64,000 nt of DNA from an uncultured Methanosarcinales archaeon (GTDB lineage Archaea; Nanobdellota; Nanobdellia; Woesearchaeales; GW2011-AR9): assembly GCA_964527395.1 (NCBI GenBank), contig CAZGQD010000003.1:29124-93123 (forward strand), read 5' to 3'. A program made the position numbers and the translations under genes. Positions 39,703 to 59,860 of the stretch are shown here, piece by piece (within the stretch, counting starts at the first letter, position 1; every line of letters starts with the position of its first letter). The notes beneath the pieces are model-generated. The model saw only the letters and a program-made list of their open reading frames with translations, made no database searches and had not been told where the DNA came from.

Positions 39703-39979
39703 GATGCTAGGTCTTTGTTCTGGCCTTTTGCGATAATTAATGCAAAGTCTTTGGCGCGCTTGCCTCCTCACTGGCAATTACATTATGAAATTACACCAAC
39801 AACAAGCATTTTTGTTCATGAAATAGAACAAAAATTATTGCGTAGTTGTTTAGACCTGCGGTAAGTCTGGCCAAGCGCCATAGGACTTTTATTATAAAAT
39901 CGCAAAATGATGAATTTGCTAAAATTCAGCGTCTGGAAAATGATTTTTCCATAAAGGCCAGCTTAAGTACCCAGCATCG
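39703..39979. repeat. inverted-repeat copy A (277 bp), ~98 percent identical to the reverse complement of 59585-59860
   Basis: Direct base-by-base comparison shows only about 4 mismatches. Contains the TGGAAAA...TTTTCCAGACGC hairpin and the aattgccagtgaggagg motif. Confidence 0.85.
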
Positions 39980-40069
39980 TGTTTCTCGAAAACCTTATAA
40001 GCGATTGTATCTTTTCTATACTAGTTAATTGGTTATAGTGATGGTTAAGAGTAGTTAGAGGTTGTTGGA

Positions 40070-40279
40070 ATGGCTAAGAAAAAAGGTATTTTGAAGAATT
40101 TAGGTTGGAAAGCTAAGCCGATTAGTTCTACGTTTTTTATGACTTCTATTATAGGATTTTTAGCTTCATTATATGCAGTTTATCCAATGAGTGTTAGATA
40201 TGGTTTTTTATTGATGCTCGCATTCGGACTTATGTTTATTGCGTCATTAGTAAGTATGACTAAAGCACCACTTAAATGA
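40070..40279 (+). CDS. hypothetical small membrane protein
   Basis: 69 aa with two hydrophobic segments. Confidence 0.3.
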   Translation: MAKKKGILKNLGWKAKPISSTFFMTSIIGFLASLYAVYPMSVRYGFLLMLAFGLMFIASLVSMTKAPLK

Positions 40280-40291
40280 GGATGGTTAATT

Positions 40292-40921
40292 ATGGCAAAG
40301 AAAAAAAAAGTGAGTAAGAAAAAGGCAAGCTCTAAAAGGAAAGTGGCTGCTCGGAAATCTAGTTCTAAGAAAAAAGTTGTTAAGAAGAAGTCTGCTGTTA
40401 GGGGGAAATCTTCTGCTAAGAGGAAAAGTTCTTCTAGTAGGTCTAAGAGTTCAGGTTCTTCAAGGTCAAAATCTTCAGCTAGTAAAGATTTGTTTTATTG
40501 GAAGTTTCCTAGGCGTGAATTTCAATTACTTCGTGTAGAAATGGCAGTATTGATAGTTTTATCTGGGCTGGTGTTTTTGTATATGTATTTACAGCCTAAC
40601 TTGAATACTTTTGCAGCAGTTGTGTCAGTGATACTGTTTGTGTCAATATATTTTGTAGTATCAGCTGTTTTGCATAAATTACGTAAAGTTGAAGAGATGT
40701 ATGAATTAAGTGCTTCGCATCTTGAGATTCAACGTTATGTGAATGGTAAAAAGACAGATCATCATAAGGTTCCTGTTAAAAAGATTAGTGGGCACAATTT
40801 TGATCACTTTTTTCATGGAGCATATGTAACTTTAGCAGATGGTACACGACATCCATTGTTTTTTGGAAGTTCAGCTGAGAGTCGCCATGTTGAAAGGAAA
40901 GTGAAGAGATATACTAGTTAA
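40292..40921 (+). CDS. hypothetical protein with Lys/Ser-rich basic N-terminal tail and two TM helices
   Basis: KKKVSKKKASSKRK... low-complexity basic region followed by hydrophobic helices. Confidence 0.4.
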   Translation: MAKKKKVSKKKASSKRKVAARKSSSKKKVVKKKSAVRGKSSAKRKSSSSRSKSSGSSRSKSSASKDLFYWKFPRREFQLLRVEMAVLIVLSGLVFLYMYLQPNLNTFAAVVSVILFVSIYFVVSAVLHKLRKVEEMYELSASHLEIQRYVNGKKTDHHKVPVKKISGHNFDHFFHGAYVTLADGTRHPLFFGSSAESRHVERKVKRYTS

Positions 40922-40945
40922 ATCAAATTTGAGGTAAAATAAAAA

Positions 40946-41680
40946 ATGGGAAATAACAAAACAGGAAATTACTTGGTTGCAGTTGTAGCAATTGTAGCTG
41001 TAGTAGGATTAGTTATGATGTTTACTGGGGGAGACTCTAGTGGTGTTAGTTTAGATTCAGGAGATGGAGCTATTGCCGGAATGGCTGTGAAAACAGGTTC
41101 TTTAGAGGGAAAAGGTATTTTGGTTACTGATGATTCTTCTAGGATCCCTTCAATAGATTTATGTGGAAACTCTATTTGTACAGAAGATGAAATGTGTGTT
41201 GATGATACTTGTGTAACATGTGAATCAGAAGATGGTGATAGTTATATATGGGGAGGAGATACTTCTGGTTTGTGGCCTGCTTCTGGAGGATATGAATATT
41301 ATTCAAGTATGAGTGATTATTGTTTAAGTGATGAAATTTTGGCTGAGCGATCTTGTTCAGGTGCTGAGATAGTTCAAGAAAATTTTGTTTGTGCAGATGT
41401 ATTGGATCCAGGTTATTATTGTTCAGAAGGAGCTTGTGTTCGTCAGAAAATTTCTTGTAATGAATTTAGTGATATTAAAGCAGGAGCTTCTTTTAGTATT
41501 GAAAGTGAAGGAGTTGTAGGAAATTATATTCAGCTTAGCGCAGATGAAACTTCAGCTTTGATTCAGCTTAACGCAAGACAAGAATATGTAACAATTGGTG
41601 AAAGAGCAGAAATTGAGGGTTATCAAGTACAAGTATTTGAAGCTGATGAATCGGAAGTTGTATTAAAAATTTATTGTTAA
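40946..41680 (+). CDS. membrane-anchored Cys-rich secreted protein
   Basis: N-terminal TM/signal anchor, then an acidic Cys-rich ectodomain (CGNSICTEDEMCVDDTCVTCESEDG...). Confidence 0.4.
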   Translation: MGNNKTGNYLVAVVAIVAVVGLVMMFTGGDSSGVSLDSGDGAIAGMAVKTGSLEGKGILVTDDSSRIPSIDLCGNSICTEDEMCVDDTCVTCESEDGDSYIWGGDTSGLWPASGGYEYYSSMSDYCLSDEILAERSCSGAEIVQENFVCADVLDPGYYCSEGACVRQKISCNEFSDIKAGASFSIESEGVVGNYIQLSADETSALIQLNARQEYVTIGERAEIEGYQVQVFEADESEVVLKIYC

Positions 41681-41859
41681 TTTTTTTTTTAAATTAAATT
41701 TTATAAATAAAGTTCTATTTTAAGGTTCTAAGATGATTATTGAACCAATAGATACTGCTGTAGATGCTTGGATTCTGGAAGTAAAGAGGGTTTTTCTGAA
41801 GATCTGTATGTGTATATGAGTTTGGATCTTTGGTTTGGTGTTCTTTGTTGTTTTCTTTT

Positions 41860-42030
41860 TCAATTTAGAGCTTATTTTGGCTGATTTAGAGCAAAAGAAG
41901 GTTGTTTTAAGCTATTTGGGCGAAAAGAAGGCTGTTTTGGCCGATTTAGAGCAAAAGAAGGTCATTTTAGGGGATTTGAGGGAAAAGGAGGCTAATTTGG
42001 GCTTTTTAGAAAGGAAGGTTTTTATTGTGT
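41860..42030. repeat. about five degenerate ~30-bp tandem repeats (gatttagagcaaaagaaggtYRttttRRg...), same family as 12288-12500
   Basis: Direct reading; ORF 41835-42050 is a translation of the repeats and is considered spurious. Confidence 0.6.
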
Positions 42031-42043
42031 TGTTAGAGTTTAG

Positions 42044-42844
42044 TTGTTAATGGTAGAATTAGTTACTTTTGTTCTGGTTGTTTTTGTAGGTCTAATTACT
42101 GGTTTTGTTGATTCAGTTATTGGAGCAGGAGGATTGATATCAATACCTTTTTTGATTTTTACAGGAGTTCCGCCACAAGTTGCTATTGCAACAGACAAAT
42201 TTGGTCTGCTTGGGCATATATTTGGGTCTATCCCTAAGTTTTGGAAGGAGAAAAAGATTGTTTGGAAATATGTCCCTTTGTTGTCTTTGTTGGGGATAAT
42301 TGGAGGGTATATTGGAACTAAGATAATAATTAGTGTGAATGAGGCTGCTTTGACAAAAGTTGTTGGGTTTGCTATCTTGTTTTTGTTGCCAGTTGTGTTT
42401 TTTAAGAAAGATTTAGGTTTGATTAAAAAGAAAGTTTCTAATTTGAAGAAAATAATTAGGTACTAGGAAATCGAGGATTTCCTGTACAGGAAAGCTTCGC
42501 TTTCCTTGTATCCGTTGTATTTACTTGCAATGATTTTTGGAGCGTCTATAAGTGCAGGATCAGGACCTATAGTGTTATTGTTTCTAGTATCTTTTTTTGG
42601 TTTAACTTTTATTCAAGCAAATGCAACAGATCAAATATCTTGGTTTTTTTTGTCTATTGTATCTTTGATAGTGTTTGGAATCAATGGTTTGATTGATTTT
42701 TGGCTTGGAATTGCAATATTGATAGGAATGAGTATTGGAGGTTACTATGATGTGAAAGTTGCTGTTAATAAAGGGAATGTTTGGGTTAGAAAGGCATTTG
42801 TAGTGGTTGTGGTATTGTCTGGGTTGAAATTGTTGTTTTTGTAG
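42044..42844 (+). pseudogene. TauE/SafE (DUF81) family anion permease interrupted by a single in-frame TAG at 42464-42466; pseudogene or read-through/recoding candidate
   Basis: ORF 42044-42466 (N-terminal repeat, GAGGLISIPFL) and ORF 42506-42844 (C-terminal repeat, TTG start) are in the same frame, separated only by TAG plus 39 nt. The combined product would be ~265 aa, the usual TauE length. Confidence 0.55.
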
Positions 42845-42863
42845 GTAAGGTTTTTAATGAGAT

Positions 42864-43466
42864 GTGGTTTTGAGTATTTTTATGGTAGTTGATATTGATT
42901 CGTTCTTGAAGATTAGAGCTATTTATGGTTTGAAGGCTATTGAGCGTTCTGGGACAGTTGTGACTGAGAGCGGTTTGGTGCGTCGTGATAACCCTGCGGA
43001 GCATTCTTGGAGTGCAATGGTTTTGGCTGATTATTTGATGAGTCGATTTTCTGTTGAAGTTGATAGGTTGAGGGTGTTAGAGCTGCTTATGTACCATGAC
43101 TTTGTGGAGATCAAATGTGGAGATGTTTGTATTAGTGATACTGAGGGGAGAAGGAAGAAGGCTCAAGAAGAAATGGTGGCAGCGCTGGAGTTCAAGGAGG
43201 AGTTTGCTAGTGGGTTTGGAGATAAGTTTTATTCGCTGTTTTTGGAGTTTGAGGCTTGGGAAAGTCAAGAAGCTAAGTTTGCAATGATGGTAGACAAATT
43301 TGATGCCTTCTTGCATTGTATGGACCATAAAGAAGAATGGGCAGGATGGTCTAAGGAGAAGTTGTTTTCTTACAAAGTTAAATATTTTGAGCCTTTTCCA
43401 GAGATATTAGAACTGTTTTATGCAATAGTTGAAAAATTAGAAAAAGAAGATTTTTTTGGTAAATAG
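42864..43466 (+). CDS. HD-domain phosphohydrolase (YfbR-like 5'-deoxynucleotidase family)
   Basis: HSWSAMVLADYL ... LMYHDFVEIKCGD pattern of the YfbR-type HD fold. Confidence 0.6.
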   Translation: MVLSIFMVVDIDSFLKIRAIYGLKAIERSGTVVTESGLVRRDNPAEHSWSAMVLADYLMSRFSVEVDRLRVLELLMYHDFVEIKCGDVCISDTEGRRKKAQEEMVAALEFKEEFASGFGDKFYSLFLEFEAWESQEAKFAMMVDKFDAFLHCMDHKEEWAGWSKEKLFSYKVKYFEPFPEILELFYAIVEKLEKEDFFGK

Positions 43467-43795
43467 AGTTCTTGAATTATCCTGCTTTAGGGAAAATTCT
43501 TTGAAGCTCTTGTGAATCTTGCCGTGAAAGATTGTAGTTGACAAGATCTTTGAAGAACTTTTCATACATTGGTTTTGGCATGGTATTACCTTTTTATGAC
43601 TTTTTTTTAGTCATTTATGTGGTTGTCAGGCGTTAATGCAGGCGTGACCACTCGCTCTTAATTTTTGTTGAAAAACAACAAAAATGCTCGTTAATATACT
43701 CTTCAGTTGAATTTAATTGCCAGCGAGGAGACAACCACGTCAATGACTTTGGATGTTTATGTGGACTCTTTTGTGTATGAGTTTGTTTTGTTGTC

Positions 43796-44065
43796 TTAGT
43801 TAGCTGGTTCGCTGGAACCTGTTGGAACTGCGCTCTTAGAGATAATTAAGATGTCGCCAACAGCTTTAACTAATTGATGTGGTACAATAACACCCTTAGC
43901 ACTTCCTAAAACTCTAGATAGGAATGAGTTCTTTGTTGATCTGATTTTCCACCCGAAAACCTTGTTACTAGTAATAATACTGTCTTCAACGTCACCAAAG
44001 TAGTCACCTGAATCTGTGTAAACCTTAATATCGTATGTTTGAGATACTTTTTTCATTTTAAGCAT
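43796..44065 (-). CDS. PRC-barrel domain protein
   Basis: 89-aa archaeal PRC-barrel-like sequence (GDVEDSIITSNKVFGWKI ... GVIVPHQLVKAVGDILII). Confidence 0.5.
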   Translation of the reverse strand: MLKMKKVSQTYDIKVYTDSGDYFGDVEDSIITSNKVFGWKIRSTKNSFLSRVLGSAKGVIVPHQLVKAVGDILIISKSAVPTGSSEPAN

Positions 44066-44136
44066 AGTAAATTCACCTCACCTGAGAAGAATTTGGGATG
44101 TAAGTTTATATAGTTTTCTGTGCTTTTGTAGGCATA

Positions 44137-44838
44137 ATGGTGATATATCTACTAGGAACGTCGCATATTTCATCTGCTAGTGTAGCGCAGATCAAAAAGG
44201 AAGTTGGGTCGCTTAAGTACTCTGTTGTGGCTGTGGAGCTTGATCCGATACGACTCAAAAGTATGTTTTCTAAGGAATCTGGGAGCTTATCGCCTCGTTT
44301 GATCTTTCAAGTAGGTGTTGTAGGGTATTTATTTGCTGTGTTAGGTAGGTATGTTCAGCAGAAGCTTGGACGTGTGGTTGGAGTGATGCCAGGAGAAGAG
44401 ATGAAGACTGCTGTAGTTTTGTCTGCTAAAAACAAATTGAAATTGGCTCTGATTGATCGTAGAATAGATAAAACACTTCGGGCTTTTTCAACTGAGTTTT
44501 CTTTTATGGATAAAATGAGGATGGTTTATGACTTTTTTTATGCTATCTTGTTTCAGAAGAAGTATCTTGAGAAGGTTGGGTTTAAGAGTTTTGATTTGAC
44601 ATCTGTGCCTTCATCTGAAGTTGTTAAATTGATGGTTGGGCATTTGGAGAATCGTTATCCTAGTTTGTATAAGGTTTTGATTCATGATCGTAATAAAGTT
44701 ATGGTGAATGGACTTGTTCGATTGAGTCGGAAAGAAGAGAATGAGGGTGTTGATATGTTGGCTGTTGTAGGAGCTGGGCATGTTCCAGGGATGGTTGAGT
44801 TGCTTGAAAAGAAGAAGGTTGAGTTTGTGGTTATTTAG
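44137..44838 (+). CDS. TraB/GumN family protein
   Basis: N-terminal LLGTSHISSASV motif characteristic of TraB-family proteins. Confidence 0.65.
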   Translation: MVIYLLGTSHISSASVAQIKKEVGSLKYSVVAVELDPIRLKSMFSKESGSLSPRLIFQVGVVGYLFAVLGRYVQQKLGRVVGVMPGEEMKTAVVLSAKNKLKLALIDRRIDKTLRAFSTEFSFMDKMRMVYDFFYAILFQKKYLEKVGFKSFDLTSVPSSEVVKLMVGHLENRYPSLYKVLIHDRNKVMVNGLVRLSRKEENEGVDMLAVVGAGHVPGMVELLEKKKVEFVVI

Positions 44839-45566
44839 GTGATTTTTTTGAAATAAAGAGTTGTGGTGTCAGTTGTTGTTGGGGTTAATATGTAAGCATT
44901 TTCTGTTTTTCTTAATTCTACATGGAATAAATTAAGTTTTCTTCTTGCATCAGGAGTTTCTGTGAAGGTTGATTCAATTGAAATTTGTCCTGTTTCTCCA
45001 ATCAATGGAACTCTAGAAACAAAACAAAGGTGGTGAGGAACTCCTTTTGGTCTTTTACTACTTGCATTAGCGTAGCTAACTCCATCAGGGAGAGCAGATC
45101 TCCAGTGTTTAAGAATTACTTGATAGTGTCTTTCAGGATTTTTATTAGGATTTATTGGAATAACAACAGAAGTAAGGTTAGGGGATAGTTCAAGATAAGC
45201 AACTGTGTCAGGTTGACTAAGGGTTCTTTGATTTCCTGTAGCTATTTCATAAAGAGTTTCATTTGAAGTTGTTATTATGTATCCATTCATTTCAGTTAAT
45301 ATTCGTGATCCAGGAACAGTATTTGGGTTTGTTCTTCCAGGAATTATTTGGTTTTCAACGGCAGTAGAGATTGCTCTAGCCATTATGTCTTTTTGAGTTA
45401 TAAAAAGAAGATCAGTTAATCTTCTTCCTTGAGCATTTTCTGAATTAATAGAATGACCAGTATCATAATTGAAGTCTACTCTTTTTTTTCTTCCTCTTGG
45501 AGGACTAGTAGTTCTTACAGAAGGAAGAGAAGCTCTTCCTAATCTAGGTAAATTTGGTAATGGCAT
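44835..45566 (-). CDS. hypothetical protein
   Basis: 243-aa ORF, Thr/Pro-rich, no motif recognised. Confidence 0.35.
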   Translation of the reverse strand: MPLPNLPRLGRASLPSVRTTSPPRGRKKRVDFNYDTGHSINSENAQGRRLTDLLFITQKDIMARAISTAVENQIIPGRTNPNTVPGSRILTEMNGYIITTSNETLYEIATGNQRTLSQPDTVAYLELSPNLTSVVIPINPNKNPERHYQVILKHWRSALPDGVSYANASSKRPKGVPHHLCFVSRVPLIGETGQISIESTFTETPDARRKLNLFHVELRKTENAYILTPTTTDTTTLYFKKIT

Positions 45567-45654
45567 AATGTATATGCTGCATATGGTGCTTTTAAAAGGG
45601 TTTTGGTTGGGATTTTGGAGTAGATTTATAAAAATGAGCTGTATTTTGCTTATT

Positions 45655-46033
45655 GTAGATTACGCTAGGAAGCTGACGGTATCTTTATTGATGCTGAGGA
45701 AGGTCCGCCCACCGTAAATGAGCCTCCTTTTTAGGAGCTGGAGAAATTCAGGGCTCTGGAACAGAAACGACACGTCCTAAGTCTAGGCACTTAAAAACAC
45801 TTTGTGTTTTTAGGGCCAGAAAATCATATGATTTTCTTGGAATGATATGTGTGAAGCTTTGCGTGAGTGAAGGGAGTTAATCACTTGACTGTTTGAAACT
45901 TAGGGAACGATGAAACGGCGAAACCGCTCTGGTGCAAGTCTTTGACGCTTAGTCGAATGCTTCCAAATGCTTATCGGTAGTACTTTATTGTGCTGCTTTG
46001 GAGTATACAGAAGGTGGCCTATTGCGTGACTAC
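45655..46033 (+). ncRNA. rnpB: RNase P RNA candidate
   Basis: GC-rich island in an AT-rich region. 5' block GAGGAAGGTCCGCCCACC resembles P4 GAGGAAAGUCCGGGCUCC, internal ACAGAAACGACACG is present, 3' block ACAGAAGGTGGCCTATTGCG resembles ACAGAACCCGGCUUAUCG, and the terminal gcgtgactac/gtagattacgc can pair as P1. Confidence 0.55.
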
Positions 46034-46171
46034 ACTTTTTTCTTGTTTTTATTGCTTAATTTTTATAAATAAGGCATTATTTTGGGTTTTTATGAGAGAT
46101 TTTTATCGAAGCTTAGATCTAAGAATTAGCTCTGGAAGATTGAGTAGATTTAATATCAGAAGGAGGCTTGA

Positions 46172-46624
46172 GTGATTATGGAACTTACTGGAAATATAAA
46201 GAGAGATGTTTATTCTTTTTTGGATCGTGAGGAATGGAGAAGTCCAGTTAAATTGATTCGTATGATTGAAGGGGAGATGGGAAGAAGAGATTTAACTAGA
46301 AGAGATTTAATTCCTTTAGAACAAGATGGAAGAGGATTTATGCATGAGAATAGTGAAGTTGGTTTTTATATAACTATGAGTGAATTGTATAGGACCTTAA
46401 AAGAATTAGCTGATGAAGGTTATGCTTTAGAGGAAGACAAGGAAGTTGAAGGTTATGATGAGAATTCTTTGGTTGAGGATAGAAGGAAGGTGTTTCCATT
46501 TTATTTGAAGACAGATAAACCGTTTGAACCAGGGACTAGAGGATCAGTTAGGTCTTTTGATAGAGAAGGGGCTAACAATGTGACTTATTTTAATGAAGTT
46601 GGGCTTGAGAGGAGACTTAATTGA
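46172..46624 (+). CDS. hypothetical protein
   Basis: 150-aa ORF; listed start overlaps the end of the RNase P RNA candidate, so the true start may be the internal Met. Confidence 0.35.
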   Translation: MIMELTGNIKRDVYSFLDREEWRSPVKLIRMIEGEMGRRDLTRRDLIPLEQDGRGFMHENSEVGFYITMSELYRTLKELADEGYALEEDKEVEGYDENSLVEDRRKVFPFYLKTDKPFEPGTRGSVRSFDREGANNVTYFNEVGLERRLN

Positions 46625-46762
46625 TTTTTTTAGTTTTCTTTGCAAAGGGTTTATATATAAATAGGTGGATTTGTTAGTTTGATTATGGCATACATGGAAA
46701 CTAAGAGTTTCCAGTCGCCATTTTTCCTTTGAGGATAAAAATTTAAGGTTAGTAAAGAAAAA

Positions 46763-46936
46763 ATGGCAAAAGATAACAAAGTACACATGCCTTCTGGACA
46801 AGGAGGACTTACACGGTATTTTGATGAAGCTTCTAGTAAGATTCAGTTCTCACCGCATGCAGTGATTATAGCAAGTGTAGTGATTTTTGTACTTTTGATA
46901 CTTTTGCATGTTCTAGGTAATAGATATTTAGTTTAG
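46763..46936 (+). CDS. secG: preprotein translocase Sec61-beta / archaeal SecG-like subunit (58 aa)
   Basis: Not in the ORF table (under 60 aa). MAKDNKVHMPSGQGGLTRYFDE...ISPHAVIIASVVIFVLLILL matches the conserved GLxRYFDE region plus single C-terminal TM helix of Sec61-beta. Confidence 0.55.
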   Translation: MAKDNKVHMPSGQGGLTRYFDEASSKIQFSPHAVIIASVVIFVLLILLHVLGNRYLV

Positions 46937-46954
46937 AAGATATAAGGAGTTGAT

Positions 46955-47311
46955 TTGAAAGTGTTCCCAGGGGTTAATCCAAAACAAATGCAGAAAATGA
47001 TGAACAAGATGGGCATCAAGCAAGTTGATCTAGGTGCTCGTAAAGTTATTATTGAGCTTGAAGATAAGAAATTGGTGTTTGATTCTAATGTTTCTGTACA
47101 GCGAGTGAACATGATGGGGCAAGAAACCTTTCAAATAGTTGGACCTTATAATGAGGAGAGCTATGACGATAACCCTAGCATTTCTGATGAAGACGTACAA
47201 GTAGTTATTGCACAAACTGGAGTTAGTCGGGAACGGGCTATTGAAGCTATTACAGGGTCTAAAGGAGATCTGGCTGAAGCTATCATGGAATTATCTGCTA
47301 AAAAAGAGTAA
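46955..47311 (+). CDS. nac: nascent polypeptide-associated complex alpha subunit (NAC domain plus C-terminal UBA)
   Basis: NAC domain (VDLGARKVIIELEDKKLVF...VQRV...ETFQIVG) and UBA-like tail (EDVQVVIAQTGVSRERAIEAITGSKGDLAEAIMEL). Confidence 0.8.
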   Translation: MKVFPGVNPKQMQKMMNKMGIKQVDLGARKVIIELEDKKLVFDSNVSVQRVNMMGQETFQIVGPYNEESYDDNPSISDEDVQVVIAQTGVSRERAIEAITGSKGDLAEAIMELSAKKE

Positions 47312-47333
47312 ATTAGGTTTAGTGAGTAGAGTA

Positions 47334-47729
47334 ATGAAGTCCAAGTCTGAAATTTTTGATAAAATAGCGTCTGTAAAACATATTCTAGAAGTGAGTTATC
47401 CACAAGTTAAAGATAGTCGTTTATTAGTTCGTTGTATGGTGATTTTGTCTGAGGCTTACTCGTCTGTGGCTAGTTCTGTAGGGGCTCATGGTGATTTAGA
47501 GGGGTTAGGTTCTGTTCATTTTAGTGTTTTTGAAGGGTTTTTGGCTAAAAGAGATAGTCTAAAATCTATGATAGAGAACTATGATTGTGGGCCAAAATCG
47601 TTCTCAAGACCTTCAGATTATGTGATTTGTGCAAAGGATTATAAAGTTCAAGTTATTTCTGTTAGTTCTGTAAGGGAGTACTTGACTTTTTTGCAGGAAA
47701 ATTGTGAAATTTTAAGAAGTTGTGAATAA
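47334..47729 (+). CDS. hypothetical protein
   Basis: Start trimmed to MKSKSEIF, because the listed upstream part overlaps the nac gene. Confidence 0.3.
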   Translation: MKSKSEIFDKIASVKHILEVSYPQVKDSRLLVRCMVILSEAYSSVASSVGAHGDLEGLGSVHFSVFEGFLAKRDSLKSMIENYDCGPKSFSRPSDYVICAKDYKVQVISVSSVREYLTFLQENCEILRSCE

Positions 47730-48263: not shown

Positions 48264-48602
<339 letters not shown>

Positions 48603-48674
48603 GTATTTAAATAGTTCTTTTTTGATGTTTCTTTACGATAAGTTTAAATATCAATTGATAATTTTAGTTATCAG

Positions 48675-51110: not shown

Positions 51111-51494
51111 TTATGTATGGTATTTTACATCAAACAATTTGAATTCGTCTATTTCAAAAGCAGTTATCATTTTTGCTTCATGGTCCAAAGCTAACATAAA
51201 GAAGTCTTTAGTGTAACCTTGACTTCTTTTGAGGGCTTGGTATCTATTGGCATCTTCATGTCCATTGTGGAAACTGTAGCGTCCGGTGTTTGCTTCAACT
51301 AGTACAATATGGTTTGGGTGTCTTAGCATAGTAGCTTCGTTTGCTTCGTAGAATTTGTCTATATTTTCTAGAGGGGAAGTGTTGTCAGCTGGATTGTAGA
51401 CTATTGTAGGTGTAATTGGAGCAGAAGGTTCTTCTGAAGGGGAGGTTGGTTCTTTTTTAAGGAGTTTTTTGATAATGTCGCATATGAAGGTCAT
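51111..51494 (-). CDS. hypothetical protein
   Basis: 127-aa ORF. Confidence 0.35.
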   Translation of the reverse strand: MTFICDIIKKLLKKEPTSPSEEPSAPITPTIVYNPADNTSPLENIDKFYEANEATMLRHPNHIVLVEANTGRYSFHNGHEDANRYQALKRSQGYTKDFFMLALDHEAKMITAFEIDEFKLFDVKYHT

Positions 51495-51537
51495 GTGTTT
51501 TTTGTTAGTTTTAGTTTAAATAAAGGTTTTGATTAAG

Positions 51538-52776
51538 TTATATCTGGTAATTGAGCTTTTTTAGGTCCATTAGGATTAATTCTTGGATTAGATATTCAAA
51601 TTCTAGGTCGTTTCTTTCGTTAGATTTTTTAGTTAGGTTTAGATATTGATCGAAGTAGCCTAAAGGAAAGTCTAAGATTGGAATTTTGTGATTTCTTAAA
51701 ATGTGAAACATTAGTAGTCTTGAAGTTCTACTATTACCATCATTAAAAGGGTGAATTCTTTGAAATTCGTTATGGAAAAATGCAGCGAAGGAGATAATTC
51801 TTTTAAGATCATTTGAGGTTTTGTTTTTTTCTTTTTTGAATTCATCATAAAGAGTAAGGAGATGGTCTAGTTTTTGGCTTATCTGTTGCCAAGCTGCTGT
51901 TTTGAAATTAGGGTTACCTTTGATTCTGACGTCATGTTTTCTGATTTCTCCTGCACCAAAAGTGTGGTACATAGCTGTTTTGTGGTAGATTAGAATAAGT
52001 TCTTTGGTGATTGTTTTGTTGTTGTTTGCATTTTCTAGCATTAGGTCTACTGCTTTTTTGTAGTTCATTAATTCTTGAATGTTATTCGCAGTGTAATTAG
52101 AAATGCTCTGTCCAGTTAGGATCTTTTGAGTGTCAGGTAAGGTTAAAGGGTTTCCTTCTAAACTTAAACTTTGATGGATGAAAGAGATTTGGGATTTTTC
52201 TTCTAATTTGAATAAATCTATATTATCTTGCTTCTTTATTTTTTTGTATTTAGATAATTCTTTTTTAATTAAAGGAATGATGTCTTGTCTTTTAGTTTGA
52301 TCAAAAGTATTGTCTTTTTTGTGATATTTAAGAAGGTTTTTTAGGAAGTTGTTTTCTAAGAGTTTTGCTTTTAGTGGCTTTTTACTAAATATTAAAACAA
52401 ATCCATATTTTGCTAAGGTGTTGGTATAGTCTGTGAATGTTTTTTGGCTGATGTCTGTACTGTTAGAGTAGAAATATTCTCTAGGAGCTATGTCTAAAAT
52501 GAAATTGATAACTGATTCTTTTAATAAGAAATTGTATGAAAGGTTGTTTTTAATACAAAAATGGATAATGTTGTAAAGATCTTGGCTTTTTTTAGAGTTG
52601 ATTACTTGGAAAGTTTTGTTTTTCTTTGAGATTAGTTTGTTTTTTTTAAGTTCTGAGATGTGATTGTAGATAGAGTTGTAGCTACTTTTTCTTTCTCCTA
52701 GGTATTTATTGATATTAGAAATAGTGCAAGTGCCTTTTCTAGCAATTATGTAAAAAATGTCATATTCTGATACCAT
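51538..52776 (-). CDS. Fic/Doc family protein with N-terminal HTH-like extension
   Basis: Fic motif variant HPFNDGNSRTSR within a 412-aa protein. Confidence 0.75.
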   Translation of the reverse strand: MVSEYDIFYIIARKGTCTISNINKYLGERKSSYNSIYNHISELKKNKLISKKNKTFQVINSKKSQDLYNIIHFCIKNNLSYNFLLKESVINFILDIAPREYFYSNSTDISQKTFTDYTNTLAKYGFVLIFSKKPLKAKLLENNFLKNLLKYHKKDNTFDQTKRQDIIPLIKKELSKYKKIKKQDNIDLFKLEEKSQISFIHQSLSLEGNPLTLPDTQKILTGQSISNYTANNIQELMNYKKAVDLMLENANNNKTITKELILIYHKTAMYHTFGAGEIRKHDVRIKGNPNFKTAAWQQISQKLDHLLTLYDEFKKEKNKTSNDLKRIISFAAFFHNEFQRIHPFNDGNSRTSRLLMFHILRNHKIPILDFPLGYFDQYLNLTKKSNERNDLEFEYLIQELILMDLKKLNYQI

Positions 52777-52999
52777 CTAAGGTGTAGAAAGGGTTATTCT
52801 TTATAAATTTATGCTATTAAGGATATTTTCTGTAGTTTTTCTTAATATTTTGTTCTTTTTGGTCTGTTTTTGGAATTTTTAGGTTAATAATTGACCATTA
52901 AGGATATTTTCTGTAGGTTTTCTTAATATTTTATGCGTTTTAAGTATTCTCTTATTATTATAAGGAAGATTTAAATAAAAGTAATACTTTATTACTTTT

Positions 53000-53257
53000 A
53001 TGGCAGAAGTTAAGACTATTAAGGGAGTTACTGAAGAGACTTGGGCTGAGTTTAAGGGGCTTGCTTCAAGAAATGATGATACTTTAGGTTCTTTTTTTGA
53101 GAAATTGATTGCTTTTTATAAGAAAGAAAGTAAGACTTTTTGGGACGATATTCTTGGGGGAGATCCGATTATAACGGAGGAAGAAGCAAAGGATATAGAA
53201 AAAGAGATAATTTCTCTTCGTAAGCAAAGGAGTTTTAGAGATGACCTTGATTTTTGA
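53000..53257 (+). CDS. VapB-like antitoxin candidate
   Basis: 85-aa ORF overlapping the downstream PIN gene by 17 nt. Confidence 0.45.
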   Translation: MAEVKTIKGVTEETWAEFKGLASRNDDTLGSFFEKLIAFYKKESKTFWDDILGGDPIITEEEAKDIEKEIISLRKQRSFRDDLDF

Positions 53258-53642
53258 TTCTTCAATTCTTATAGATTTGGAGAAAGGGAAGAAGGAAACT
53301 ATCTCTAGTTTGAAAGAATTGGCTTTGAGGTATCCTGCGCCAGTGTTTATAAGTTTTGTTTCCTATTTTGAATTTTATTTTGGAATCTTGAGAAGGTCAC
53401 CTAATAATTTTAATTTAGCTTATGGGTTTTTGCAAAAGTTTCCTTTACTTCTTCCTACGAAAAAGACTGCGGAAATTTTAGGTGAACTTAGAAAAAAGTA
53501 TAATGCACAAGGAAAAATTTTGCCATTAGCCGATTATTTGATTGCTAGTCAAGCTAAGGAACATAATTTGACGTTGGTTACAAGAGATAAAGACTTTGGG
53601 ATGTTTGAAGAAATAAAGGTTATACATTTAGAGAATATTTAG
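53241..53642 (+). CDS. vapC: PIN-domain ribonuclease (VapC-type toxin)
   Basis: LIFDSSILID N-terminal acidic motif and TRDKDF near the C-terminus; PIN fold size. Confidence 0.75.
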   Translation: MTLIFDSSILIDLEKGKKETISSLKELALRYPAPVFISFVSYFEFYFGILRRSPNNFNLAYGFLQKFPLLLPTKKTAEILGELRKKYNAQGKILPLADYLIASQAKEHNLTLVTRDKDFGMFEEIKVIHLENI

Positions 53643-53658
53643 CTGTTTTAGGCTATTT

Positions 53659-54294
53659 TTAAGAATCTTCGTTTAAAAGGAGCCTTAGGATCACTGCGGC
53701 GCTCCGATCTTCTTTGATTTGGTTGTTTAATGTGAGTTTGAGTAGTTCTTCTTTTGTTTTCCACTCTATTTTGATGCATGAAAATCCAAGATTTTCAGCA
53801 CAGGAAATCTTTGATTTCCTTGTGTTTTCACCATCTTCTAAGGATTGCTCTTTTTGATTGTCTTGGTCAACTGTGATTAGAAAATAGTAGAGGTCCCAAT
53901 CTATAGTAGTTCCACACTTGGAGATGTGGATAAGTTCTGTTTTGATTGGAGTGTATCCAGTTTCTTCTTGGCACTCTTTGATTGCTGCTGCCTTGGATGC
54001 GTTTTTTAGTTGGGTTTTGTTGTTTCTGATTTGTTTATAGTTTTCTAGTTTGTCAAAGACTTTTCCACCTGGGAGTCTATAGTCGTAATCTTTGATTTCG
54101 TATCTGAATTCTTTTGTGATTAGGTATTGGTTTTGTTTGTTTTTTATTATGAGTCTGACACCTGGAGCACGTCTGGCAATTTCAAAAATGACTTTCCTAT
54201 CTTCAAGTTTCATAGGGATTTTTACAAATTCTAGAATTCTGCCTGAAGCGATTATTTCTTCTGGTCCATCTTGAGTCTGGATGTTTGATTTCAT
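53659..54294 (-). CDS. NUDIX hydrolase
   Basis: Nudix box GGKVFDKLENY...AAIKECQEETGY (GX5EX7REUXEEXGU pattern). Confidence 0.75.
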   Translation of the reverse strand: MKSNIQTQDGPEEIIASGRILEFVKIPMKLEDRKVIFEIARRAPGVRLIIKNKQNQYLITKEFRYEIKDYDYRLPGGKVFDKLENYKQIRNNKTQLKNASKAAAIKECQEETGYTPIKTELIHISKCGTTIDWDLYYFLITVDQDNQKEQSLEDGENTRKSKISCAENLGFSCIKIEWKTKEELLKLTLNNQIKEDRSAAVILRLLLNEDS

Positions 54295-54350
54295 TGTATT
54301 TGGTCTAGTTTCAGATAGATTCTTATAAAATTATTGGTTCTTTAGTAGTT

Positions 54351-54479
54351 ATGGGAGATTTGAGAGAGAAAATTAGACTTTTAATGAAGGAATTTACAGT
54401 TGAGATGAAGAAGCAGAAAATATCTAAAGAAGATGCTGTTAAGGAAATTGGTTTGATGAGATTAAAAGAAATGAAATAG
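54351..54479 (+). CDS. small hypothetical protein (43 aa)
   Basis: Unlisted short ORF MGDLREKIRLLMKEF... in the gap before secD; weak. Confidence 0.2.
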   Translation: MGDLREKIRLLMKEFTVEMKKQKISKEDAVKEIGLMRLKEMK

Positions 54480-54480
54480 T

Positions 54481-56169
54481 TTATTCATCATCAGAGTCGA
54501 AAAGAATTCTAATAATGTTTGCGTAAGCTGGCCTTGCAACAAATACACCTAAAGTAATACCCATAATAGTTGTGAAAGCGAAACCTTTTAGGAGTCCAGC
54601 ACCTGCGAACCATAAAGGAAGCATTCCTACAGCAGTTGTGAAGTAAGCACCCATAACAATTGCCATAGCGGCTTTGATTTTTTCTGTTAATTTGGTTTTT
54701 TGTGAGACGCCTTTAAGAGTTTCATCACTGATAATGATAAGATGGTCAACACCAGTACCGGCGGCGATGATGATTCCAGCCAAAGCAGCTAAGTCTAAGT
54801 TCCAACCTACTAGGGCTGCGAAACCTAGGATTAAAACTATCTCTGAGAGCATGATAAGGCTCATTGGGATTGCGATTTTTGGTTTTCTATACCTAAGCAT
54901 GATAGTTGTGAAAACAGCTAGGATGGCGATGATTGCTACAATGGTAAGATTGTCTAAGAATTCTTCTCCAAGTTCAGGAGAGATAGTGTCCATCTTAACA
55001 ATTTCTAGTTCTATTGGAAGTGAACCTGTGATTAGAATAGTTTGAAGCTTCTTCATATTGTTTAAAGTGTCTTCAATAGCGTTATCTTGACCATTACCAT
55101 AACCTGAACCTGAAATAGAAATGTCTGTTACAGGTCTTCCTTGCAGATCTGCACCAATTCTTAATGAATCTACTTCTTCATCATCTAAATAGAGGATAAG
55201 GCTTTCACTTAAATATCTTGAATTTGCAGTGTATTCTATAGTTAGTTCTTCTGTTAGGTCTGCTTGTTTTTGTGCTGCTTCTGGACTTAAACTGATAGCG
55301 AATGAGAATGAACAAATGTGTGAACCATCTTGTTGTGCCTGACATCCACGTTGTGGGTCGATACCAGAACAGTCAGCACTTCTACAAACGTAAGTGATAT
55401 CTTCGTTAGCACTTGAGAAAACAGTTTGGTTAGCTATTTTTGCTTCGAACTTACCTTGTTTTGATAACAATTCTCTTACTTCTTTTTCAGTTGCACCAGC
55501 GATTTCAATTACAATGTATTGGTCTCCTGCTAGGTCTGTTGCTGGAGTAATACTGATGTCGCTTAGACCGTAAACGTTTAGTCTTTCGTTAAGACTTTCA
55601 GCTGTAACTTCTAGAGTTTCTTCTGAGACACGTTCTGTTGGAGCTAGTAAGACTCTGGTTCCACCAGCTAGGTCAAGGCCTTTTCTTAAGTTGTTTTTAG
55701 CAGGCTGCGTTACTGAGATTCCTAGGCTGATTTCTTCACCTGGAGAGATTGTGTTAATGTTATTTGTTTGGTTTGTTGAGTTAGTTGTATCGTTATTATT
55801 TGAGGATTCATCTATTGTATCGTCTGAAATGGTTGGAGTTAAAATAGTGTAAGTAGCTTCAGTTGTAGTGATTCTAATAGGTGTTTGAGGTTCTAGATTG
55901 CTTGTAAGTTCGTAGAATTGGTCCGTGCTTGTTATTTTAGTGTTGTCTATTTGCAATATTCTTTCTCTTTGCATTGGAGATGTTTTAGTATCTGGACTAG
56001 ACATACCAGCTTCACTTGCTAAGGAATTTGTTTCTATACTTTGGATAGTAACTCCAGTTGCGAACCAGTTGCTTGGATTTAATGTGAAAATTGAAGTTAG
56101 AGCAAAGACTAGGAAAACTAATAATAGGATTACTCTGAAATTTGTGAAGATCTTTTTTGCTTTTCCCAT
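54481..56169 (-). CDS. secD: protein-export membrane protein SecD
   Basis: GLDLAGGTRVLL periplasmic-domain motif and C-terminal six-TM bundle with AAGTGVDHLIIISD. Confidence 0.8.
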   Translation of the reverse strand: MGKAKKIFTNFRVILLLVFLVFALTSIFTLNPSNWFATGVTIQSIETNSLASEAGMSSPDTKTSPMQRERILQIDNTKITSTDQFYELTSNLEPQTPIRITTTEATYTILTPTISDDTIDESSNNNDTTNSTNQTNNINTISPGEEISLGISVTQPAKNNLRKGLDLAGGTRVLLAPTERVSEETLEVTAESLNERLNVYGLSDISITPATDLAGDQYIVIEIAGATEKEVRELLSKQGKFEAKIANQTVFSSANEDITYVCRSADCSGIDPQRGCQAQQDGSHICSFSFAISLSPEAAQKQADLTEELTIEYTANSRYLSESLILYLDDEEVDSLRIGADLQGRPVTDISISGSGYGNGQDNAIEDTLNNMKKLQTILITGSLPIELEIVKMDTISPELGEEFLDNLTIVAIIAILAVFTTIMLRYRKPKIAIPMSLIMLSEIVLILGFAALVGWNLDLAALAGIIIAAGTGVDHLIIISDETLKGVSQKTKLTEKIKAAMAIVMGAYFTTAVGMLPLWFAGAGLLKGFAFTTIMGITLGVFVARPAYANIIRILFDSDDE

Positions 56170-56194
56170 TTTTGCTTTTCTTTTTTTAATTATA

Positions 56195-57220
56195 TTATTG
56201 AGTATGTAATTCTTTTTTGTCAGCGTCTTTCATGATTTCTTGATGAAGTTCTGCTGTTGTCTTAGGTGCTTTAGATTCTTTTTGTTTTGAGTGATGCTTA
56301 TGTTGCTTAGAGTGTTCTTTAGCTTGAACTTGCTCTTTTTGCCTCTCGTGCTTTTCACCAACAGATTCAAGGTAGAGTCTTAAGATTCCTACGTTCTGGA
56401 TCCAAGTCATAATTAAGTCTACCAAAAGACCGATTACTAAAATTAAAGCGATTTGTTTTACAATTTCACTTTTTACTAAGATCAAGGTGATGATAAGTAC
56501 AATAATTGTAGTTGCAACCATAGTAAGACCTGTTTTCATAGCTTCGTAGACCCTTTTCATAAGCTGTTTTTGGCCACGTCTCTTTAGAAGGTGAGTTGTA
56601 ACTAAGATGTCTGTATCTACAGAATAACCTATAAGCATTAATAGTGCTGCGATTCCAGCTGTTTGGAGCTTTTGGCCAGTTAAGTTGAAAATTGCTACAG
56701 TAATAATAATGTCTGACCCTGCTGCAAGGATAACAGCTAGGCTTGGTGCCAAAGTTCTAAAATATAGGAAAACTACTACACCCATTAGTAAGAATGCTAC
56801 TAATAAAGCAATCATGGTTTGTTTAAAGAAACTTTCACCTAAGGAAGAACCCATAACTTCAGTAGTTAGTTGATCTTCTGTTACTCCTGCTAACTCAGTG
56901 ATTGAGTCAGTTAGAAGTTGCAGATTAGTTTCGTCTTGGATCGTTGATTCGATGATGATTCCTGTCTTGCCTAAGGTTCTGGCGCTTAGTTCTGCGTTTG
57001 GAAATTCTTGTTGTAGGGTGGATTCTATGGTTTCTAGGCTAGTTGTTGTGTCAGTTATAGTGATAGTTGATCCTCCGCTAAGAGATACACCTTTGTTAAC
57101 AAAATCGCCTGTTGCTGCTGTTTGAAGTCCGATTTGGACGAATGCTGCGAATAGTAAGATGAAAGGGATGATTAGAAGAATTTTGTACTTTTCTTCATAA
57201 AATTGTTTGATTGCTTTCAT
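56195..57220 (-). CDS. secF: protein-export membrane protein SecF, with a Lys/His-rich C-terminal tail
   Basis: GVSLSGGSTITI and GYSVDTDILV motifs; archaeal secF-secD gene order. Confidence 0.75.
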   Translation of the reverse strand: MKAIKQFYEEKYKILLIIPFILLFAAFVQIGLQTAATGDFVNKGVSLSGGSTITITDTTTSLETIESTLQQEFPNAELSARTLGKTGIIIESTIQDETNLQLLTDSITELAGVTEDQLTTEVMGSSLGESFFKQTMIALLVAFLLMGVVVFLYFRTLAPSLAVILAAGSDIIITVAIFNLTGQKLQTAGIAALLMLIGYSVDTDILVTTHLLKRRGQKQLMKRVYEAMKTGLTMVATTIIVLIITLILVKSEIVKQIALILVIGLLVDLIMTWIQNVGILRLYLESVGEKHERQKEQVQAKEHSKQHKHHSKQKESKAPKTTAELHQEIMKDADKKELHTQ

Positions 57221-57293
57221 GTTTGCTGTTTGGCGGTTTGGGCTTTTTTAAAGGTTATGGTTGGCTTGAGGTTATATTAGTAGTTTTTTGTGT

Positions 57294-57437
57294 GGGCTCT
57301 GTAGAAACCCTCAATTCGGGGCGAGGTTGAATAGGCTCTTCTTCGCGTTCGCCTAAACGGCTCAGGTCGTTTGATTAAGCTCTAGCGAAGATAGTCTCTT
57401 TTTGCGGAGGCGCCCCCGAGAGGGTTTCTACAGAGCC
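57294..57437. repeat. 144-bp MITE-like element with 18-19-bp terminal inverted repeats GGGCTCTGTAGAAACCCTC
   Basis: Termini are reverse complements; the interior aataggctcttcttcgcgttcgcc...ctcaggtcg is homologous to the interior of 39363-39695. Confidence 0.5.
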
Positions 57438-57481
57438 TTTGTGTGAAATAGTTTATAAATAGAGAGTTTTGAGGTGTTTAT

Positions 57482-58198
57482 ATGTTAAGATTAATTGGAA
57501 ATGACCTGCCAGAATATGTTAGTTCTGAGGTTGGAAGATTCGTTGCAAAATATAAGGAGGAATTAGGTGAAGACTTTTTGTTTGATCCTAGAATCTGTTT
57601 AACTAGAGGTAATGATTATATTGTTGCTTTAGAATCATTTGGTAGAGTTGGAGCAAAGGTGAATGTTGGAGATGTTTCTGGGATAGAATTATCTGATTTG
57701 AGAAGTGGGCTTAGTCATGCAGTAGCTAATTTGCCTTTTTTGTTAAGGGGAGCTAGTGAGAGAGCTTATGCAATACAGCCTTTTGCGTATCAAAGAGATA
57801 AGAGTGGGTTTGATTTAAGTGAAGCTCCAGAAGGAGCTGATGATTTATTTTTGTATGTAAAATATAAAGGTTCACCTTTGGAAGGGAGAGTTGATGTTTG
57901 TTTTGGAGGAGAACAAGCAAGTGGAATTAATTTTTTGGAGTTGCGTGATACTGGAAGGATTTTAGGTGAAGCAGTAGGAGTATTATATCATGAACTTTGT
58001 GAAAGTTCAAATTCAGTTTTTAGTGAGGGGTCATTATTAAGTGAAGCTTGGAAAGAATGGAATAATGTACTTAGAAATATGCATCCATTGCTTATTGCAG
58101 CAGATAAATTTGGAGATAAGTATGATATGTCTTCTCAAGGGAATTGGATTAAGAGTAGAAGTTTTGAAAGAGTGCCTAAGATTACTCGAGTTTATTGA
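57482..58198 (+). CDS. hypothetical protein
   Basis: 238-aa ORF. Confidence 0.35.
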   Translation: MLRLIGNDLPEYVSSEVGRFVAKYKEELGEDFLFDPRICLTRGNDYIVALESFGRVGAKVNVGDVSGIELSDLRSGLSHAVANLPFLLRGASERAYAIQPFAYQRDKSGFDLSEAPEGADDLFLYVKYKGSPLEGRVDVCFGGEQASGINFLELRDTGRILGEAVGVLYHELCESSNSVFSEGSLLSEAWKEWNNVLRNMHPLLIAADKFGDKYDMSSQGNWIKSRSFERVPKITRVY

Positions 58199-58258
58199 TT
58201 CTTTAGTTTCTTGGAAAATGTTTATAAGGATGAAAACAATGCTTTTTTGTGATGAAGA

Positions 58259-58366
58259 TGTTTAGAGGAATGAGAGAAAAGTTAGGACAAGCTACAGTTT
58301 GGCCAGTAGTGGTTTTAGGACTTGTAGTTTTGGTAATATTGGTTTATTTTTTTGGAATTAGATGAG
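58259..58366 (+). CDS. small hydrophobic protein candidate (35 aa)
   Basis: Unlisted ORF MFRGMREKLGQATVWPVVVLGLVVLVILVYFFGIR; weak. Confidence 0.2.
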
Positions 58367-58541
58367 ATTGTTTTTAAAGTTTTTTTAGCATATTTTTTGT
58401 CACTTTTTTCTTAGTTTGTTTACTATTTTTAGGTTTTCTAGTTCATTTTGGCTTAGTGGTTTGAGTATTTTTTATGCACAAACTTATGGAAATAGAGTAT
58501 TATCTAACGTTTTTTAAAGAAAACTTTAAAAAAAGATATTT

Positions 58542-59504
58542 TTGTGCTATTTTATGAGTTTAGATGATTTAGGATATCAGTTCCCTGGAGGAGTTTTTAA
58601 AGGAAATTTTGTTAGAAATGAAGCAGATGTAGCAAATTCTAGAGTGAGAACTGTTTTAAGAGGAGGAGATTTGTCTTATGAAGGTTTTAGAGAGTTTGTA
58701 TCTGAATATTCTGCTAGTGATATCTCTGATGATAAGCTTAGAGGTATTTTTGATGAAGATAGGCGTTTGATGGGTGAATTAGAGACGATAATCAAAGGTC
58801 GAGGTTATGATGGAGTTTCAGATCAGAATGTGAAAGAGATATATTTTGTAGATTCTTTAAAGGAAGATTTGGTGGTAAAGAAACTTTCAAGTTATGGTTT
58901 TGATAGTGTTGTTGAGGATGATGTTAGAGCTTATTTGAATAAGAGAGTTTTATTAGATGATAGGGTTGCTGCTTTGGTTTCTAATAATGGAATCCAGGGA
59001 ATAGAAGGTTCTAAGCTTGAAGGAGTTTTGAATGGAGGATTTTTGACTGGGAATGGGTTGGAGAACGCTATTTATAAAGACCAAGTTGAAAATGATAAAC
59101 ATGATTTTAGGGTGAAGTTTACTTTTTATGATGAACAGTCAGGTTTAGTTAGAGCAGAAGGATTAGATGATTTTGGGAGTTCTATACTTTGGGGCAGATA
59201 TGATGCTGGTACAGGAGAAGTATATTTAATTAAAGAATATAAGAAAGATATTGTTTGTGATAAAAAATTTGGACCTGGAGAAGTAGTAACTTTTACTTCA
59301 ATAATGTATGAGGGGAAGGTATCTGTTGTAGATGAGAAGATAGTTTTTGATTTAAAGTATCATCCAAACATTTCTGTTGTTCCAAGAGATGGGCCTTGTT
59401 CTGGAGTTTCTATTCTTAGTAGAGAATTGAATGATGATGAAAAGCCAACAGATTTTAATTCTGAAGAAGGAAGGACTGAAGCTGTTGATATAGTTGATTC
59501 TTAG
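58542..59504 (+). CDS. hypothetical protein
   Basis: 320-aa ORF; true start likely MSLDDLGYQF. Confidence 0.35.
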   Translation: MCYFMSLDDLGYQFPGGVFKGNFVRNEADVANSRVRTVLRGGDLSYEGFREFVSEYSASDISDDKLRGIFDEDRRLMGELETIIKGRGYDGVSDQNVKEIYFVDSLKEDLVVKKLSSYGFDSVVEDDVRAYLNKRVLLDDRVAALVSNNGIQGIEGSKLEGVLNGGFLTGNGLENAIYKDQVENDKHDFRVKFTFYDEQSGLVRAEGLDDFGSSILWGRYDAGTGEVYLIKEYKKDIVCDKKFGPGEVVTFTSIMYEGKVSVVDEKIVFDLKYHPNISVVPRDGPCSGVSILSRELNDDEKPTDFNSEEGRTEAVDIVDS

Positions 59505-59584
59505 GTAGGATGAAGGTTTTGTTTAGATATTGAGTCTAGGCGCCAAGTTCCTTTGAAGTTAGTAAGTCCTGGAGGCATGGATTT

Positions 59585-59860
59585 GATGCTGGGTACTTAA
59601 GCTGGCCTTTATGGAAAAATCATTTTCCAGACGCTGAATTTTAGCAAATTCATCATTTTGCGATTTTATAATAAAAGTCCTATGGCGCTTGGCCAGACTT
59701 ACCGCAGGTCTAAACAACTACGCAATAATTTTTGTTCTATTTCATGAACAAAAATGCTTGTTGTTGGTGTAATTTCATAATGTAATTGCCAGTGAGGAGG
59801 CAAGCGCGCCAAAGACTTTTTACCAATTATTGCAAAAGGCCAGAACAAAGACCTAGCATC
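59585..59860. repeat. inverted-repeat copy B (276 bp), partner of 39703-39979
   Basis: Reverse complement matches copy A with about 4 mismatches. Confidence 0.85.

Follow-up and report, generated by a model that had tools for sequence, protein, structure and literature searches.

A 276-bp inverted repeat around core genes of a DPANN archaeon: two probable MITE insertions next to promoters

Introduction

The closest precedent for a transposon that settles at a set distance from promoters comes from bacteria, where the Mutator-like elements TnGBS, ISLre2 and ISKra4 (p-MULT 3 and 4) insert 13-17 bp upstream of sigma-A promoters (PMC3942029). For ISH6 (p-MULT 2), a mainly archaeal Mutator-like insertion sequence (IS), promoter targeting is speculation only in the same paper, and a literature search found no paper on TATA-proximal targeting by archaeal IS. 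The present work concerns a 276-bp element that occurs in two inverted copies, 19.6 kb apart, in a 64-kb stretch of DNA with a G+C content of 34.5% (contig CAZGQD010000003.1; the whole stretch is called the window) from a Woesearchaeota-like DPANN archaeon. The two copies are very probably independent insertions of one non-autonomous MITE (miniature inverted-repeat transposable element). At least seven small repeat elements are present in the 64 kb, and the resulting ~110 per Mb is close to the ~105 MITEs per Mb of a Woesearchaeal genome (PMC11602168).

The element resembles a MITE in being short, non-coding and intergenic, in having terminal inverted repeats (TIRs) in common with an autonomous IS, in its fixed-length target duplication and in its strong fold-back. 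It differs in that the interior is no remnant of a parent IS and is built from repeat modules of the host lineage, and in that only two copies of exactly this element are known. With TnGBS, ISLre2 and ISKra4 it shares the transposase superfamily and a position at a fixed short distance upstream of an intact core promoter. Those bacterial elements use -35/-10 promoters and mostly one orientation, whereas here the promoters consist of a TFB-recognition element (BRE) and a TATA box and both orientations are used.

Anatomy of the repeat pair

A repeat search of the window returned two arms of 277 nt (39702-39978 and 59585-59861) that are 98% complementary and spaced 19,606 nt apart. Base-by-base comparison showed that the 277th nucleotide is a chance match of the flanks and that the shared unit is 276 bp, with the five mismatches between the copies confined to element positions 30, 37, 38, 40 and 41. 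The inverted repeat of about 98% identity reported in the original prediction is real; its end for copy A, given as 39979, lies one base too far, the true end being 39978.

39703..39978, + strand: MITE copy A (E2-A), 276 bp; termini GATGCTAGGTCTTTGTTCTGGCC... and ...GGCCAGCTTAAGTACCCAGCATC
59585..59860, - strand: MITE copy B (E2-B), 276 bp; 271/276 positions identical to copy A
39695..39702, no strand: left 8-bp duplication of copy A (GTGTTTCT), which doubles as nt 1-8 of the 9-bp duplication on the right of a neighbouring 331-bp MITE
39979..39986, no strand: right 8-bp duplication of copy A (GTGTTTCT)
59577..59584, no strand: inner 8-bp duplication of copy B (ATGGATTT)
59861..59868, no strand: outer 8-bp duplication of copy B (ATGGATTT)

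The TIRs are imperfect and ~26 bp long (GATGCTAGGTCTTTGTTCTGGCCTTT against GATGCTGGGTACTTAAGCTGGCCTTT from the reverse-complemented end), with an identity of 20/26. The terminus pattern occurs four times in the window where 0.01 occurrences would be expected. The earlier judgement that the copies are far too similar for chance was right. Copy A folds back nearly end to end with a free energy of -92 kcal/mol (z -6.6), and both copies contain the hairpin TGGAAA..TTTCCAGACGC and the motif AATTGCCAGTGAGGAGG that had been pointed out before. The element lies in intergenic DNA, is devoid of coding capacity and of transposase similarity, and is shorter than the ~500-bp limit for MITEs. Rfam, searched at gathering and at permissive thresholds, has no family for it or for a look-alike at 19.9 kb, the only returns being sub-threshold snoRNA and miRNA noise.

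Each copy is flanked by its own perfect 8-bp direct repeat, GTGTTTCT for copy A and ATGGATTT for copy B, while the chance of a flanking 8-mer match at such spacing in the window is 1.3e-4 per position. The original prediction had allowed for a recently duplicated module as well; the element is indeed recently duplicated and non-coding, and what that description missed are the TIRs and the 8-bp duplications that make each copy a mobile unit.

Transposase-bearing relatives

One genome per species was screened with a consensus of the two termini, and JGI metagenomes were screened with the better conserved of the two. Matches were obtained in metagenome-assembled genomes (MAGs) of Woesearchaeota, Nanoarchaeia and Pacearchaeota and in MAGs labelled Methanosarcinales, many of them at contig ends. 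Seven loci (L019, L021, L048, L049, L053, L054 and L065) hold complete elements of 1419-1428 bp with the same termini and a single open reading frame (ORF) of 443-446 aa. These elements, from related genomes, have 23-27 nt per end in common with the 276-bp element at 96-100% identity. Six loci (L006, L018, L023, L028, L059 and L060) have further short derivatives, 67-173 bp long, whose interiors are unrelated. Duplications in the family measure 8 bp in seven elements (five perfect, those of L006 and L059 with one substitution) and 7 bp in two, with none in four.

The DDE core of the transposase is RNase H-like, a helical insertion separates its second Asp from the Glu, and the protein is structurally similar to a solved member. 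It is placed in the Mutator/IS256 superfamily (p-MULT) on the basis of structure and of weak matches to all five p-MULT families. From the ISCth4 / IS256-family transposase (PDB 6xg8) it differs in sequence, at 14% identity, and in an unlike N-terminal zinc-finger region; a profile of the transposase matched no PDB sequence. The Pfam Mutator model (PF20700) scores 16-18 bits, below its gathering threshold of 26.5.

Like ISH6, the parent IS is ~1.4 kb long, has a single ORF for a DDE transposase and makes an 8-bp AT-rich duplication. By the NCBI criterion it is a non-member, scoring 30.3 bits against the cut-off of 240 for NCBIfam NF041731 (ISH6) in a weak but near end-to-end alignment, and 17 of 25 members of the transposase clade match that model at E <= 0.01 (best 6.4e-10), while other clade members match the IS66, IS6 or ISLre2 models equally weakly. 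The duplications have the 8-bp length of those of ISH6, and the ISH6 motif AANATNTT is not evident in GTGTTTCT, ATGGATTT, ATGTTTTG, GTTTTTTC or TTTGTGGA. ISH6 is known from ~15 genomes, mostly of halophiles, whereas the present clade is found in DPANN archaea. As the transposases of this family are all annotated as hypothetical, the insertion sequences of DPANN archaea are under-counted.

The same termini were observed in 'uncultured Methanosarcinales' MAGs of 40-44% G+C (L003, L012, L020, L022, L024, L026, L006, L018, L023 and L013), where matches often stand at contig ends and no transposase is present in the stretches examined. Transfer between DPANN and other archaea, or mis-binning, could account for them.

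The enclosed segment and its relatives

In the DNA between the copies, Rfam identifies an archaeal RNase P RNA (45656-46032, 132 bits), and there are genes with the Pfam labels SecD/SecF, Sec61-beta, NAC and MinD/ParA-like ATPase, in agreement with the core genes named in the original prediction (RNase P RNA, secDF, secG, nac and minD). The window is 100% identical to a 98.7-kb ENA scaffold. The ABC-ATPase beside copy B has relatives at 86% (L064) and 75% (L061) protein identity, its more distant named matches being Woesearchaeota and Nanoarchaeota. L061, a 294-kb NCBI contig, has the gene order and strands of the window across both repeat copies. The collinear run comprises TyrRS, a small membrane protein, a 212-aa protein, an HD hydrolase, an 89-aa gene (- strand) and TraB, followed by Sec61-beta, NAC, MinD, SecD and SecF (both - strand), the ABC ATPase and a permease.

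The 276-bp element is absent from L061 at both orthologous sites, and both promoter boxes are kept there; 70 bp stand in place of the window's 175-aa gene and two MITEs. In L064 the gene pair at copy B is separated by a 72-bp spacer that keeps the box and is devoid of the element. As L061 is collinear across both copies, the 19.6-kb segment is ordinary chromosome in its ancestral orientation. The earlier view that the enclosed segment is itself no mobile element was right. The two insertions are recent.

Compared with L061, the window (38714-59504) has gained many accessory genes between the collinear core genes, with 22 kb against the compact 10 kb of L061. The gained genes include the 175-aa gene, two TauE-like genes, Fic, PIN and NUDIX genes, genes of 238 aa and 316 aa, and a nucleotidyltransferase with small partners (toxin-antitoxin-like).

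Position relative to promoters

Directly past the duplication of each copy stands a promoter-like box:

39987..40001, + strand: BRE/TATA-like box (CGAAAAC CTTATAAG), directly past the copy A duplication and upstream of a 69-aa gene at 40072
59869..59883, + strand: BRE/TATA box (GAAAATG TTTATATA), directly past the copy B duplication and 27 nt before the ABC-ATPase ATG at 59910

At copy A, the homology with L061, which is devoid of both MITEs, begins exactly past the duplication, and the box reads CAAAAAACTTATAAGC there against CGAAAACCTTATAAGC in the window. At copy B, the box is kept without the MITE as GAAAATGTTTATATAC in L064 and GAAAATCTTTATATAC in L061, against GAAAATGTTTATATAC in the window. 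Because relatives without the element have the box, it is host DNA, and a TATA box belonging to the element was rejected.

Inspection of the family's ends, read outward, suggested a recurrent order: the 8-bp duplication, then 6-7 A-rich nucleotides and then TTTATATA, TTTATAAA or TTTAAATA. When 45 unique flanks were scored at each offset for the consensus TTTAWAWA, one mismatch being tolerated, 18 matches fell at offset 14-15 and no more than three at any other offset. The background per position is 0.0064 for the loci and 0.0117 for the flanks, which puts P between 4e-18 and 1e-22. Most of the promoter-facing flanks have an ATG ~20-30 nt past the box, as in leaderless archaeal genes, and both termini are able to face the promoter. 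Since only one end per insertion can do so, roughly 80% of the family insertions obey the promoter-distance rule. As the pattern had first been found by eye, fresh sites were fetched through two transposase clusters; 4/13 new unique flanks have the box at offset 14-15 (P 2e-4), and two more have it at offset 17.

The evidence tips somewhat in favour of placing the element in a DPANN clade of Mutator-like IS and MITEs, so far undescribed, whose members integrate at a set position relative to archaeal promoters, with the 8-bp staggered cut directly upstream of the BRE and 6-7 bp from the TATA box. If this is true, it would be the archaeal counterpart of the sigma-A targeting of TnGBS, ISLre2 and ISKra4 and of TFIIIB-guided Ty3. 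The promoter would be recognised either directly, by its sequence or shape, or via bound TATA-binding protein (TBP) and transcription factor B (TFB), and it is a possibility that the transposase reads the TBP/TFB-bound or bent promoter.

The insertions can be pictured as follows. The gene-less 276-bp MITE carries ~26-bp TIRs. A DDE transposase from the Mutator/IS256 superfamily, encoded by the 1.42-kb IS of related DPANN genomes, would recognise them and be supplied in trans. A staggered 8-bp cut of the target followed by gap repair would leave the 8-bp direct duplication at each copy. The target would be chosen by its position relative to a promoter, so that the BRE-like spacer (6-7 nt) and then the TATA box follow immediately downstream of the duplicated 8 bp and the core promoter stays intact. 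Copy A would have inserted upstream of the 40072 gene's promoter, into the target duplication left by an older MITE at the same spot, and copy B upstream of the ABC-transporter promoter. Because the element shares just its terminal 26-32 nt with the IS and no transposase homologue is present in the window, we only infer mobilisation in trans for this host.

The fixed-distance promoter targeting is the part worth following. Insertions of this kind keep the core promoter and displace the upstream DNA, so that they could rewire regulation without killing genes, and such placement would be useful to elements in very small genomes. A fixed TATA spacing would further let promoters in uncultured archaea be located from sequence alone, and the family would provide a natural setting in which to study the reading of the archaeal (eukaryote-like) transcription initiation complex by a transposase.

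Alternative explanations

Several findings weigh against two independent MITE insertions at promoters. No more than two copies of the exact element were found, both within the 64-kb window, and the interior is no deletion derivative of any full-length IS seen, the match being limited to 26-32 nt per end. A transposase homologue is absent from the window, and no transposase copy could be tied to the same genome, cluster P0013 coming from Tara Oceans. About 60% of the family ends have no TATA match at the fixed offset; half of this figure would be expected, since a single end faces the promoter, and the rule is not absolute. An exactly empty site in the same species was not found, the unoccupied sites being those of relatives at 75-86% protein identity; the exact 24-mer of the reconstructed empty site B has no match in the JGI metagenomes, a collection evidently without samples of this genome, as a scan of it did not recover the element itself either.

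The original prediction saw in the locus a candidate invertible segment. On this reading the copies would recombine and the 19.6 kb would flip in the population, possibly with a regulatory role. Two inverted copies of 276 bp at 98% identity are a plausible substrate for homologous recombination, and the contigs of the JGI and Logan assemblies break off within the identical core, which is compatible with a minority orientation. Elsewhere in the family, four members are devoid of a duplication (L028 2319-2471, L065 69-1496, L048 176-1603 and L053 562-1980). The TATA box stands at offset 15 on both sides in L028 and L065 and on neither side in L048 and L053, so that these four cases look like the reciprocal products of recombination between two promoter-adjacent copies. 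Inversion may happen in this element family; in the window it has not. An odd number of inversions would have exchanged the duplications, yet those of both copies still match. With a matching pair of 8-mers at each copy, the segment has undergone no net inversion after the insertions. L061 is collinear over the whole segment. Two scaffolds from ENA, each of a different sample, run across copy A with the window arrangement, with which all contigs recovered from other assemblies are compatible. The hybrid junctions expected after inversion (GTGTTTCT-element-AAATCCAT and AGAAACAC-element-ATGGATTT) occur in none of the recovered contigs, those that break in the identical core being uninformative. 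The Pfam labels of the genes called in or beside the segment include no recombinase or invertase. Homologous recombination could physically invert the segment now and then. There is no sign of a programmed switch, and an invertible segment is an improbable account of the locus. It is still less probable that the host has duplicated a functional non-coding RNA or regulatory module whose likeness to a transposon is incidental. Such a module would explain the strong folding of the interior (z -6.6 and -7.2), which has its invariant CTGGCAAT and CCTGCnnTAA and a covarying inner stem in common with three other intergenic loci; however, no Rfam family matches, a strong fold-back is expected of any MITE, and TIRs with target duplications are the footprint of transposition and not of segmental duplication. 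Hardly any weight falls on an assembly artefact (a collapsed or chimeric join) or on a composite transposon that moves the 19.6 kb as a unit. Repeats are frequent places of breaks and misjoins in metagenome assemblies from short reads, and the element is where several contigs end. Nevertheless, every element-flank junction reappears in JGI, Logan and ENA assemblies made independently from other samples, with breaks tending to lie in the identical core, and as the four junctions recur across samples and assemblers (L030, L031, L038, L039, L043 and L045-L047), the repeat is no artefact. A composite transposon would leave one outer duplication, whereas the outer flanks here are GTGTTTCT and ATGGATTT; each copy has a duplication pair of its own, so there is no composite transposon, and the enclosed core genes are collinear with a relative without the elements. 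The candidate switch is ordinary: the striking inverted repeat around core genes is two transposon insertions, and the opposite orientation of the copies is incidental.

A second MITE family beside copy A

Two members of another MITE family lie in the window:

39364..39694, + strand: neighbouring second-family MITE (E1), 331 bp; termini GGCTCTGTAGAAAATC and GGTTTTCTACAGAGCC
57295..57437, + strand: short second-family member (E1s), 143 bp; 8-bp duplication TTTGTGTG, then aaatag TTTATAAA, with an ATG at 57482

The family has GGCTCTGTAGAAA termini and 8-9-bp duplications, and a further member is L051 137-258. E1 shows a perfect 9-bp duplication, GTGTTTCTC, once E2-A and one E2-A 8-mer are removed. 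The original prediction had copy A abut a 333-bp MITE-like element; the two do adjoin, at a size of 331 bp and with the shared 8-bp duplication between them. From this nesting, E1 and E2-A appear to have chosen the same few bases upstream of the same promoter, E1 first, and it is for this reason that copy A adjoins another MITE. E1s likewise lies upstream of a TATA box (57452), at a distance of 6 nt. A second-family member and a GATGCT-type element also lie end to end, with a 9-nt spacer, in an unrelated metagenome (L051). The second family, unrelated-looking as it is, appears to use the same promoter rule, which would explain why the two families lie end to end both at copy A and in L051. The GGCTCT termini of E1 resemble ISL3 ends, and the 331-bp MITE may be of ISL3 origin.

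Internal modules and other small repeats

The interior of the 276-bp element contains two recognisable modules:

39740..39887, + strand: internal module, CTGGCAAT ... CCTGCnnTAA; found by nhmmer and alignment, related to three chromosomal repeats in the window
39905..39951, - strand: hairpin module GGAAA..TTTCCAGACGC TGAATT..AATTCAGC; also in E1 (39565-39624) and alone at 34572-34629

The AATTGCCAGTGAGGAGG motif is part of the internal module of ~150 nt, which has relatives at 19876-20054, 26174-26333 and 43597-43765, all on the - strand (nhmmer E 2.6e-7 to 9e-4). The inner stem covaries between the copies as AACAAC/GTTGTT, AACCAC/GTGGTT and TTCCAC/GTGGAA. The three chromosomal relatives have an A/T-rich hairpin and neither GATGCT termini nor an Rfam match. 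The copy at 43.7 kb lies inside a 214-bp insertion (43582-43795) between the 89-aa gene and a 34-aa ORF, which abut in L061. Relative to L061 this copy is inserted DNA, and none of the other loci examined contains the module. The module is therefore best read as a lineage-specific interspersed repeat incorporated by the MITE, in preference to a conserved RNA gene, and on the same two grounds a new structured RNA gene was set aside as the main reading. The conserved 34-aa ORF (MPKPMYEKFFKDLVNYNLSRQDSQELQRIFPKAG; 43477-43581, - strand) has no gene call on the scaffold of the window. The JGI contig with the same locus as L061 has it as a called and conserved gene, and L061 has the same sequence (MRKPMYEKFFKDFVNYNLTKQESEELQKIFPTAG).

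The hairpin sequence TTTCCAGACGC has four exact copies in the window against 0.54 expected and is found in both MITE families. The lone double hairpin at 34572-34629 (GGAAAC..TTTCCAGACGC TGAATT..AATTCAGC) lies directly downstream of an ORF stop. A palindromic repeat family of ~99 bp (GTATATACTCATCCGTAAC..GTTACGGATTCGAGACACAGTTCCGTAAG..CTTACGGACCAGTATATA) has at least three copies, two of them identical, at window positions 33926-34024 and 11763-11826 and, past the window end, at L035 19524-19622. The window further contains an intergenic (TTAG)n microsatellite of ~15 units at 48543-48622. At 41875-41994 a 30-bp unit (TTTTGGCTGATTTAGAGCAAAAGAAGGTTG) is repeated three to four times in tandem, overlapping a small ORF. 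ARAGORN reports zero tRNAs in the window, whereas Rfam places a tRNA of 143 nt, presumably intron-containing, at 31619-31761 on the + strand.

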